Positions 3,792 through 4,406 of a DNA stretch of 8,131 bases are shown here, piece after piece. A program made the position numbers and the translations under genes. Position 1 is the stretch's first letter, and each line of letters opens with the position of its first letter. Location of the stretch: IMG/VR virus record IMGVR_UViG_2671180298_000006, positions 1-8,131 of that record; one strand, 5' to 3'. The stretch is from a virus (taxonomy: Duplodnaviria > Heunggongvirae > Uroviricota > Caudoviricetes). Under the pieces are notes generated by a model, which was not told where the DNA came from, searched no databases, and saw only the letters and a list, made by a program, of their open reading frames with translations.

Positions 3792-3839
3792 TTTGCTGCT
3801 CCTAATCATATCGACCCTGCAAGGTCGGTTGGTTTCTCC

Positions 3840-3928
3840 ACAAAACAGAGAAGAACACCTGCGGTGGCAGCCGCCCGGATGGATTTGGTTATGAGCCCGT
3901 CGTCCGGTGATGCTCTTCTCTGTTTTGT
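3840..3928. repeat. Long-range perfect 15-bp inverted repeat enclosing a roughly 50-nt segment with internal hairpins
   Basis: ACAAAACAGAGAAGA (3840-3854) is the exact reverse complement of TCTTCTCTGTTTTGT (3914-3928). The enclosed segment holds GCGG-tggcag-CCGC and CCGGA…TCCGG pairings. It sits in the ORF-free leader of the leftward operon. Confidence 0.4.
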
Positions 3929-3938
3929 AAAAAGAGCG

Positions 3939-3974
3939 GTACCAGCCGGAAGCAAGTGTACAAACTGGTACCGC
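3939..3974. repeat. 8-bp inverted repeat GGTACCAG / CTGGTACC with 20-nt spacer
   Basis: Perfect arms at 3939-3946 and 3967-3974. On the - strand the hairpin is followed by gctcTTTTT, so it could be a weak terminator or attenuator. It contains the GGTACC core that also appears in the operator palindromes. Confidence 0.3.
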
Positions 3975-4406
3975 CAAAGCAGTGGCTGTTGTGGTGACCG
4001 GTGCTGATCTCCGGCTTGCGGTTATTTCAGACTCTCACGGGCGTTTAATTGCCCCGCCGAACAGCTCTTTTCCGCATTAGCTGCAATGTCTTTCGCGCAT
4101 CAGCCTGCGCATTCACCACAACGCTGAGAGCACTTAGCCAGTTACGGCACCACACTTTGTCGCGGTTCCATAAATGTCCTCATCGTTGCACCCTGGTCTC
4201 TTCCCAGGCGTCAAACCGAATCGCCACGCTGGTTAGGCGTCTTATCAGCATCATCATTGACTTGCACATTCCGGCTACCTGGTTTGTTTGCCCGAGCAAG
4301 GAGTGGATTGTCCCCTTTAACGTCCCCAGACCGCTAACGACGCATGTGCCATACGCCGTGTTACAACCAAATTTTGTTTAATCTTGCCTGTGCTATGTTT
4401 CTTTTA

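Follow-up and report, generated by a model that had tools for sequence, protein, structure and literature searches.

What occupies the leader between the PL-like promoter and the first early gene of a lambdoid prophage when no N gene is found there? The stretch considered here, referred to as the window, comprises the 8,131 nucleotides (nt) at positions 1 to 8,131 of IMG/VR record IMGVR_UViG_2671180298_000006 and corresponds to the immunity region of a prophage, a lambdoid one of the mEp460 / cdtI / SfV type. From the promoter to the gene yfdP the leader measures 613 nt (window 3793-4405, read on the minus strand), and a sequence-only reading had proposed for it a structured RNA, a decayed N-like gene, a site in the place of nutL or a recombination site. 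It is very probably a non-coding, multi-domain RNA transcribed leftward from PL, the central domain of which belongs to a very widespread family of phage and prophage RNAs. The order of modules on the minus strand is M1, a small hairpin, a long hairpin (LH-a), the class A core, a terminator, a second long hairpin (LH-b), a further small hairpin and the ribosome binding site (RBS) of yfdP. A full-text literature search found no published description of the element, which appears to stand for a family of phage leader RNAs that is modular, extremely widespread and as yet undescribed.

The leader had been described as free of open reading frames (ORFs), and indeed it carries no coding signal. ORFs on the minus strand are of at most 49 amino acids (aa), all with TTG or GTG starts. 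The longest of them (3806..3955, 49 codons) is open in 41 homologues, but its variable sites are spread evenly over codon positions 1, 2 and 3 (17/18/17), and thus it is under no coding constraint. A Pfam search with the leader ORFs gave no match, and the homologues of the leader contain indels and variable hairpins. The ORF on the plus strand (4049..4381, TTG start, 110 aa, without a Pfam or PHROG match) is spurious, as had been suspected, and the idea of a decayed N-like gene falls for want of any family match or codon-position bias. The only PHROG matches, phrog_3651 and phrog_33599, both of ‘unknown function’, lie on opposite strands of the same LH-b DNA (window 3806-4007). For this reason, and because the minus-strand ORF has no codon-position bias, they have the look of artefacts that arose when ORFs were called on conserved RNA, and gp36 and gp37 of mEp460 are probably artefacts of the same kind.

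Attention had been drawn to two inverted repeats. The first, a perfect repeat of 15 base pairs (bp; 3840-3854 / 3914-3928), extends to arms of 25 nt (3840-3864 / 3904-3928) in which 21/25 positions are paired (84%). The second is likewise present, although it is a perfect repeat of 10 bp (3936-3945 / 3965-3974) and not of 8 bp, and the T-run reported after it on the minus strand reads UCUUUUU (3935-3929). A recurrent module, the ‘long hairpin’ (LH), accounts for the 15-bp repeat, which is one of its copies, and the main element of the leader lies between the inverted repeats.

The class A core

This element, the class A core, is a four-way junction delimited by covariation and by the exact occurrence of its motifs.

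3988..4122, minus strand: class A core, made up of P1, P2, V2 and P3
4122-4114 with 3996-3988, minus strand: closing helix P1, GUUGUGGUG paired with CACCACAAC
4113-4111, minus strand: joint AAU
4110-4095, minus strand: hairpin P2, GCGCA-GGCUGA-UGCGC
4094-4016, minus strand: variable arm V2, 79 nt
4015-3997, minus strand: hairpin P3, GCCGG-AGAUCAGCA-CCGGU

The loops of P2 (GCUGA) and P3 (UCAGC) are complementary to each other. In copies aligned on their motifs the same grammar recurs, namely an LH with a variable insert, GUUGUGGUG-AAU-P2, V2, GCCGG AGAUCAGCA CCGGC and finally CACCACAAC.

The proposal of a structured RNA on the minus strand is borne out by compensatory changes in its helices, which were found among relatives in the core, the long hairpins, the first hairpin of M1 and the terminator. 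More than ten unrelated versions of P1 flank the same AAU and P2, each complementary to its own partner, for example GAUUGGAUG/CAUCCAAUC, UGUGAUCUG/CAGAUCACA, AGUGGUCUG/CAGACCACU, GUUACGAUG/CAUCGUAAC and AGAGGGCUG/CAGCCCUCU. The stems of P2 and P3 have covariants of their own (GCACA/UGUGC, GCGUA/UACGC, GUCGG/CCGAC and GCAGG/CCUGC), and the kissing loops covary as well, with a doubly compensated GUCGA:UCGAC and a matched deletion of 1 nt. Across 76 distinct scaffolds, which were selected for pairing and in which V2 was replaced by a 4-nt placeholder, 15 of the 24 core pairs are changed on both sides (160 cells), a figure reached by none of 500 shuffles. Because of that selection a second check was made on anchors alone, defined by AAUGCGCAGGCUGAUGCGC and nothing else. 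A partner strand, that is a 5-bp hairpin within 260 nt followed immediately by a complement of at least 8/9 to the 9 nt preceding AAU, accompanies 146 of the 197 distinct anchors, as against 6, 21 and 34 in three controls.

The variants were collected in targeted pattern scans; degenerate patterns of 15-16 nt, which have many chance matches, were kept only where the full P3 and P1 partner followed. A structural descriptor free of sequence was also tried and then dropped, with 23,010 matches against 15,476 in shuffled DNA, having revealed the first alternative P1. Thermodynamic folding recovers P1 and P2 in the minimum free energy (MFE) structure and P3 in the centroid. Folding energy, put forward earlier as a way to check for an RNA, is just modestly unusual, with z = -3.0 for the whole leader and -1.9 for the core alone. 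The covariance search put forward with it found no family for the leader, as Rfam 15 returned only chance-level matches, both in the whole window (E up to 1) and in 3780-4420 (E up to 10). Among known prophage small RNAs (sRNAs), AgvB, AsxR and the Pas sRNAs belong to the late region and are in Rfam, and none of them matches.

V2 is hypervariable. Its 116 distinct arms fall into 73 clusters and range from 26 to 166 nt, yet one and the same cassette can be found on scaffolds that differ in P1. Among the V2 arms of loci L040, L046, L082, L116 and L118 one cassette, CUUAUCAGCUAGAUGGUGAGGUAAUGGCUCACCAUGGCGACGACGGGUAG (e.g. L046, around 620-690), appears to resemble the sense strand of helix 11 of 16S ribosomal RNA, and an Rfam scan of this cassette gave no match. 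Other cassettes hold a T-arm-like GGUUCGAGUCC.

A second type of core, class B, is abundant and at least as common as class A (e.g. L371-L446; phage P1, L131 2578-2704). It is laid out as GUUGUGGUGAAUGCGGCUCAGCGCACGCGGG ... CCGGG-AGGCA-CCCGG-CACCACAAC, with P2 GCGGCUCAGCGC, and is without obvious Watson-Crick pairing between its loops.

Occurrence and genomic contexts

An exact 28-mer of the core occurs in at least 120 IMG/VR viral contigs. In species-representative genomes the matches listed for the exact 21-mer UGAAUGCGCAGGCUGAUGCGC include Enterobacterales, Pseudomonas, many Burkholderiales, Rhizobiales, Oceanospirillales, Xanthomonadales and Geobacteraceae, along with genome bins labelled Flavobacterium, Coriobacteriia, Phycisphaerales and Acidobacteriota. 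A block of about 40 nt around 4089-4137 is >88% identical in Ackermannviridae, N4-like, T1-like and other unrelated phages, and an alignment of four such phages gives the invariant stretch CGUUGUGGUGAAUGCGCAGGCUGAUGCGC (minus-strand sense of the window). The core with the V2 arm of the window is found in 818 of 5426 complete E. coli genomes (15%) and in 237 plasmid copies; the two plasmid records listed are of 92-97 kb, consistent with P1-like plasmids. In the E. coli records listed, RefSeq carries no annotation under the core. In all of its contexts the core lies on the transcribed strand.

Leaders of the type seen in the window, before yfdP in the early-left operon, number 33 loci. Cores are also held by the nutL-N leaders of many lambdoid phages, where a subtype with P1 GAUUGGAUG has a boxA-like CGCUCUUUAACA and a small hairpin upstream, and where the gene that starts 14-30 nt after P1 is the N antiterminator (Pfam N36 or N_peptide). 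In L164, a relative of lambda, the leader is that of lambda on both sides and the core replaces the inner domain, placed between the conserved CAAAG..CUUUGG hairpin and ACCAAAGCU. Its P1 is extended by CUUUGG/CCAAAG to about 15 bp, in place of the GGGGUGUGUG/CACACACC stem of lambda. In lambda, RNase III cleaves this long-range stem of the N leader, and processing frees N translation.

The comparison of this leader with the nutL/N region of lambda is therefore apt as regards position, since the core sits exactly between nutL and N in other lambdoid phages, but not as regards content. In both, the slot lies in the early-left transcript between a promoter-proximal site and the first gene, and P1, like the long-range helix of the lambda N leader, closes a folded domain. 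The inner domain of lambda, however, shares neither sequence nor motifs with the class A core, and the window has a terminator and a second long hairpin instead of nutL and N. The suggestion of a nutL site is not upheld, as there is neither a boxA and boxB pair nor an N gene and the first genes are yfdP and yfdQ. The search for a nut site near the transcript start found no such pair, the sole boxA-like string being the tail of the terminator, CGCUCUUUUUACA.

Outside early-left leaders the core occurs upstream of holin genes, in the leaders of late operons, and several times in the C1-controlled ban operon of phage P1. The latter begins with a dicF-like segment, an LH, tRNA-Asn and tRNA-Thr, continues with an LH and mini-core, an LH and class A core and an LH and class B core, and ends with tciABC, tRNA-Ile, a copy of M1 and ban. 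The genes ‘plp’ and ‘upl’ of phage P1 lie on the strand opposite to the ban transcript, exactly over the mini-core, the class A core2 and LH4 (AF234172 67500-71400 = L131; 1973-2542), and are probably spurious ORFs. In a CRISPR interference (CRISPRi) screen plp, upl, tciA-C, trnI and ban were non-essential (PMC10695390), and an accessory role is suggested for the region that carries the LH and core modules. The leader of the dicB operon of prophage Qin is comparable, in that a non-coding RNA, DicF, is cut out of the untranslated head of an early operon under the control of a repressor, and in the ban operon a dicF-like segment shares its leader with LH and core units. DicF differs in being a short, Hfq-dependent, base-pairing sRNA, without similarity to the leader modules.

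The core is also found in tRNA islands. A tRNA gene lies within 300 nt of 14 of 126 canonical cores, on the same strand in 14/14 cases, and core and tRNA are sometimes interchangeable: in O157 typing phage 9, M1 and LH-a are followed by tRNA-Arg in the slot held here by the core. In Klebsiella phage Magnus the core motif follows GGTTCGATTCC, which looks like a T-arm (as read from the alignment, no tRNA finder having been used). The large phage RNAs ROOL and GOLLD are comparable in being borne by phages and prophages, often near tRNA genes, and in being modular with variable regions. They share no sequence or model similarity with the core (Rfam being negative), which is found mainly in Proteobacteria and not Firmicutes and is embedded in operon leaders.

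These contexts, together with V2, bear on an unlikely reading in which the cloverleaf is a scaffold for stability and processing and V2 is the payload, acting in trans as a decoy, aptamer or antisense RNA against factors of the host or of competitors, for example in anti-defence or in the takeover of translation. It would account for a V2 that falls into 73 clusters while identical cassettes recur on scaffolds with different P1, for the T-arm-like character of some cassettes and the apparent 16S likeness of one, and for a spread resembling that of morons (add-on genes), since unrelated types of phage have the element in their leaders, both early and late, and in tRNA islands. Dispensability for plaque formation by phage P1 (PMC10695390) and the terminator that follows the core in the window also fit. 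However, the Rfam scan of the 16S-like cassette was empty, and V2 may be as short as 26 nt. Moreover, in N-type phages only 14-30 nt, and no terminator, separate the end of the core from the start codon of N, which looks like an arrangement acting in cis.

Modules around the core

The remaining features of the leader and its immediate setting are as follows, in the order of transcription from the repressor gene.

4478-5152, minus strand: cI-like gene for a LexA-family repressor, with its own terminator adjoining and a cro-like gene to the right
4412..4439, minus strand: PL-like sigma-70 promoter, TTGACA at 4439-4434, 16-nt spacer, CATAAT at 4417-4412; 11/12 consensus positions
4209..4372, minus strand: module M1, with hairpin ACGGCGUAUG-GCA-CAUGCGUCGU at 4359-4337, strands AGCGGUCUGG ... 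CCAGGUAGCCGGAAUGUGCAAG ... GGCGAUUCGGUUUGAC and two variable hairpins
4192..4208, minus strand: small hairpin CCUGG-GAAGAGA-CCAGG separating M1 from LH-a, conserved as CCUCGGAAGAGACGAGG / CCUGGGAAGAGACCAGG in many loci
4118..4189, minus strand: long hairpin LH-a, 5' arm 4189-4171, 3' arm 4136-4118; 16/18 pairs, partly degenerate
3929..3974, minus strand: intrinsic-terminator-like hairpin, perfect 10-bp G+C-rich stem 3974-3965 / 3945-3936, 19-nt loop, UCUUUUU at 3935-3929
3840..3928, minus strand: long hairpin LH-b, arms 3928-3904 (ACAAAACAGAGAAGAGCAUCACCGG) / 3864-3840 (CCGCAGGUGUUCUUCUCUGUUUUGU)
3793..3839, minus strand: segment proximal to yfdP, with spacer GUGGAGAAAC, hairpin CGACC-UUGCAG-GGUCG at 3827-3812 and Shine-Dalgarno sequence AGGAG at 3804-3800
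3429-3792, minus strand: yfdP, ATG at 3792; yfdP and then yfdQ lie to the left of the cI-like gene

The leader is conserved in 177 phage records in a BLAST search against phage genomes, and its parts travel independently, making it a mosaic. By the same comparison 3793-4125 is shared with Stx2c phages, cdtI and others, 3793-3977 with SfV and SfIV, 3828-3934 with ST64B, and 4116-4359 with epsilon15-like phages; the match in O157 typing phage 9 abuts its tRNA-Arg gene.

The arms of LH-b are a version of the LH consensus ACAACAGGUAAGAGCA / UGCUCUUUCCGUUGU, and its apical part holds the recurrent motif GACGGGCUCAUAACC(C/A)AAUCC (GACGGGCUCAUAACCCAAUCC). LH-b is kept in SfV, SfIV, ST64B and phiNP, with compensated arm changes in divergent loci, and by analogy it is a plausible substrate of the RNase III type. 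LH-a is absent from the single-sequence MFE fold, and an intact version of it is found in O157 typing phage 9. Its last five nt (GUUGU) are also the first five of P1; those five pairs cannot therefore form in both helices at once, and the two compete. Upstream of class A cores the LH family comprises 104 distinct copies, in which 11-13 of the 19 positions show compensatory changes. In 70/83 cases a hairpin of 15 pairs or more abuts P1, against 5/83 after shuffling of the 3' arm. Three non-Watson-Crick features are kept in the LHs, with an A bulged out behind ACAAC, U opposite U at pair 8 (59/80 copies) and U.G at pair 16 (63/80). They hint at recognition by a specific protein or nuclease, and not as plain double-stranded RNA.

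G.U pairs outnumber A.C mismatches in the long hairpins by 159 to 29, which favours the transcribed-sense strand as the folded one, a count to be taken with the caveat that copies were selected with G.U allowed on the transcribed-sense strand only. The same one-sidedness tells against the recombination site suggested by the sequence-only reading. A wider form of that idea, in which the invariant 20-40-mers are recombination linkers or hairpin sites in single-stranded DNA and have no RNA function, is very improbable. It could draw on the mosaic leader whose pieces recombine independently, on the shuffling of V2 cassettes and LH inserts between conserved flanks, and on a loose likeness of the LH to integron attC, an imperfect palindrome with extrahelical bases. 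Yet the helices are compensated with many different sequences, an upkeep that recombination linkers do not need, and covariation links the loops of distant hairpins. The asymmetry of G.U and A.C points to one folded strand, the modules are always co-oriented with transcription and with tRNA genes, and no integrase is associated with them.

The commonest 3' arm of the LHs, GUGCUCUUUCC-GUUGUGG, resembles a boxA followed by a GU-rich boxC. As a boxA it was rejected: covarying LH variants lose letters of the motif, and the resemblance may for that reason be fortuitous. The boxA sequences of lambda and of rrn operons are CGCUCUUA and UGCUCUUUAACA. The tail of the terminator, CGCUCUUUUUACA (3' side and U-run, 3926-3941; minus strand CGCUCUUUUUACAAAA), also reads like a boxA, with two extra U.

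The terminator-like hairpin that had been noticed in the leader is confirmed, as a G+C-rich 10-bp stem followed by a U-run on the transcribed strand (3974-3929). Its 19-nt loop is atypical, and the hairpin was missed by a consensus terminator scan because of this length. The terminator, LH-b and the small hairpin ahead of the RBS (a hairpin whose variants still pair in homologues) move together as one unit, and class B cores are followed by this unit as well. Divergent loci have other terminator stems, which are still paired and keep the U-run. Since the unit is shared with class B cores and the stems elsewhere are unrelated, the terminator looks like an independent module and not like a co-evolved platform. 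A hairpin plus U-run within 80 nt downstream accompanies 51 of 161 distinct cores.

A junction followed so closely by a terminator invites comparison with riboswitches, and it is conceivable, if doubtful, that P1 closes an aptamer in the core, the folding of which, upon binding of a universal ligand or factor, would govern terminator formation or access to the RBS. Like the purine riboswitches, the core consists of a junction that P1 closes and of two hairpins that pair through their loops, and its nucleotides are highly conserved. As in the purine and yjdF riboswitches, a terminator or RBS comes right after P1, and a tRNA-like fold is known for the yjdF riboswitch (PMC9142559). Two kinds of ‘expression platform’ would be represented, the terminator (within 11 nt here, and the 51/161 loci) and a Shine-Dalgarno sequence 14-30 nt after P1. 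The upstream hairpin competes with P1 or its extension for the 5' strand of P1, cross-phylum invariance is typical of ligand pockets, and in the window AGCCGGA of P3 could form pairs with UCCGGCU from the loop and 3' arm of the terminator. This last antiterminator pairing is weakened, however, by the presence of the terminator and LH-b unit after cores of class B, where P3 is different, and by the unrelated terminator stems of divergent loci, so that the terminator is not specific to the core. A hypervariable insert of 26-166 nt is unusual for an aptamer, cores occur in tandem and within tRNA islands with no gene to control, and the very heterogeneous gene context does not suggest a ligand.

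Upstream of the core, window 4195-4372 recurs in phage P1 between trnI and ban, and M1 is about 79% identical to phage P1 71010-71194, in the same direction of transcription. The M1 19-mer GGUAGCCGGAAUGUGCAAG is found in >120 viral contigs and 136 distinct contexts, usually with the small hairpin CCUCGGAAGAGACGAGG and then an LH downstream, and the first hairpin of M1 shows compensatory G-C to A-U changes.

M1 is at the centre of another reading, and a quite improbable one, in which nascent M1 or the core would bind RNA polymerase in the manner of HK022 put and make it resistant to terminators, carrying it past 3974-3929. The leader and HK022 put are both non-coding structured RNAs downstream of the early promoter of an N-less phage, with the terminator directly downstream as in the classical put arrangement. 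M1 lies some 45 nt after the predicted start, a position taken elsewhere by putL or nutL, and the motif ACGGCG...CAUGCGUCG..AGCG is common to its first hairpin and to stem I of put. RNA polymerase is universal, which is compatible with cross-phylum conservation, and it has been speculated that related yfdP-yfdQ phages, which lack N, ‘may’ use a put-like mechanism (PMC12315714). Architecture and size are nevertheless different. A put covariance model (HK022 putL, putR and 7 homologues, 9 sequences in all; filters off, E up to 10) gave no match in 3793-4405, its best matches elsewhere having E = 1.5 or worse, and BLAST of put against the leader found a 9-nt identity only. G35 of put, essential by mutagenesis (PMC9378689), is not conserved in M1. 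The window holds a single copy, with no second M1, LH or core downstream of the cro-side promoter PR, and elsewhere M1 and cores also occur far from promoters and in tandem.

Furthermore, class A cores directly follow homologues of HK022 putL (78-92% identical) at five loci (L173, L243, L514, L138 and L185), with a gap of about 16 nt in L173. Since cores lie downstream of these genuine putL-like sequences and of nut sites, the core does not replace put or nut. As putL homologues are found directly upstream of class A cores, the put family itself seems to be wider than the phages usually cited, and to co-occur with the class A core RNA.

The PL-like promoter lies just downstream of the cI-like gene and the terminator of that gene, and the leader transcript probably starts near 4405. 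An imperfect palindrome (inverted repeat 4395-4413/4415-4433) overlaps its -10 and -35 elements, and a 10-nt direct repeat, ATTATGTATC, is found at 4412 and 4488 together with an inverted copy (region 4406-4498). These are probably repressor operators that flank the cI terminator. Unrelated to the leader, a strong, bidirectional-looking intrinsic terminator, AAAACCCGCCUUUAGGCGGGUUUUUU, lies between convergent genes at window 1182-1254 (plus strand) and yields weak, sub-threshold Rfam matches (rnk leader, RNAI, P9 and sroH).

A proposed mechanism and its implications

The reading preferred here, tentatively and at rather less than even confidence, is drawn by analogy: the core may be a tRNA-shaped module for processing and for the formation of a stable RNA, with an attenuating terminator and then a hairpin of the RNase III type downstream of it. 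That the RNA is made from the minus strand follows from the agreement of promoter and terminator orientations, co-orientation with tRNA genes and the excess of G.U pairs. Upon loss of the repressor, RNA polymerase would make approximately 470 nt of folded RNA before reaching any gene. Within it the core would fold into a compact tRNA-like body that serves as ‘punctuation’ and as a processing module. A cut of the RNase P type 5' of P1, cuts by RNase III in LH-a, LH-b or the extended P1, or both, would split the promoter-proximal RNA from the message and release a stable structured RNA, of which V2, either unconstrained or a payload, would be the only freely evolving part. Variability of V2 would be expected if it resembles the anticodon arm of tRNA, because it would then lie outside the region recognized by the processing enzyme. 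The hairpin and U-run after the core would stop part of the transcripts, leaving yfdP and yfdQ dependent on read-through (attenuation); with partial termination the core RNA would thus be made in excess. Read-through RNA would be trimmed at LH-b, which would place the RBS of yfdP on a short, defined 5' end, as in the lambda N leader.

The likeness to tRNA is one of layout. P1 corresponds to the acceptor stem, P2 to the D arm and P3 to the T arm, with V2 in the place of the anticodon arm. As in tRNA there is no linker between P3 and P1, and the D-like and T-like loops are in contact, which covariation supports. The contact is, however, a 5-bp Watson-Crick kissing helix and not the G18-G19/psi55-C56 elbow, the stems differ in length, and no CCA end appears to be conserved. 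A tRNA-like domain in which a large insert replaces the anticodon arm is also a feature of transfer-messenger RNA (tmRNA). By shape the core can further be likened to tRNA-like substrates of RNase P, the C4 immunity RNA of phages P1/P7 and the CI immunity RNA of P4, with cleavage in the present case proposed by analogy.

Several points weigh against this preferred reading. The involvement of RNase P and RNase III is put forward from shape and analogy. ARAGORN finds 0 genes in the window, there is no Rfam match to tRNA or tmRNA at E up to 10, and neither tool thus recognizes the core. The stack of P1 and P3 has 14 bp, against 12 bp in tRNA. No consistent RCCA follows P1: CCA is frequent there in some subtypes, at variable offsets, and ACCAAAG in one subtype is better explained by the extension of P1 than as a CCA end. 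Long hairpins, tried as a general 5' leader of phage tRNAs, are no general feature upstream of them (13 cases against 9 in controls), and the terminator has its long loop of 19 nt. As the same V2 cassettes are found on scaffolds with different P1, V2 may itself be selected. The main argument is that a processing signal would not obviously need 21 nt identical across phyla.

This cross-phylum identity is therefore taken as a hint of a specific universal partner or of an intrinsic activity, and the rival readings are kept open. It is possible, if rather unlikely, that the class A core, perhaps with M1 and the class B core, constitutes a new class of RNA with a conserved biochemical activity of its own. 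As such it might be a self-cleaving ribozyme, a ligand-sensing aptamer or a binder of RNA polymerase, the ribosome or RNase P, which phages of many phyla would put at the start of early and late operons, including the lambdoid N leaders and the ban leader of phage P1.

If the leader is what it appears to be, the ‘empty’ leader of a very common type of E. coli prophage would become an entry to a large, unannotated family of phage RNAs. Existing annotations could be corrected, with plp and upl of phage P1, gp36 and gp37 of mEp460 and PHROG 3651 and 33599 being ORF calls on RNA. Early gene control in lambdoid phages without N would become testable, and the core would provide a natural tRNA-like scaffold that tolerates inserts of 26-166 nt. 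Another matter to be explained would be the universal host factor, or the chemistry intrinsic to the RNA, that keeps 21 nt constant across phyla.

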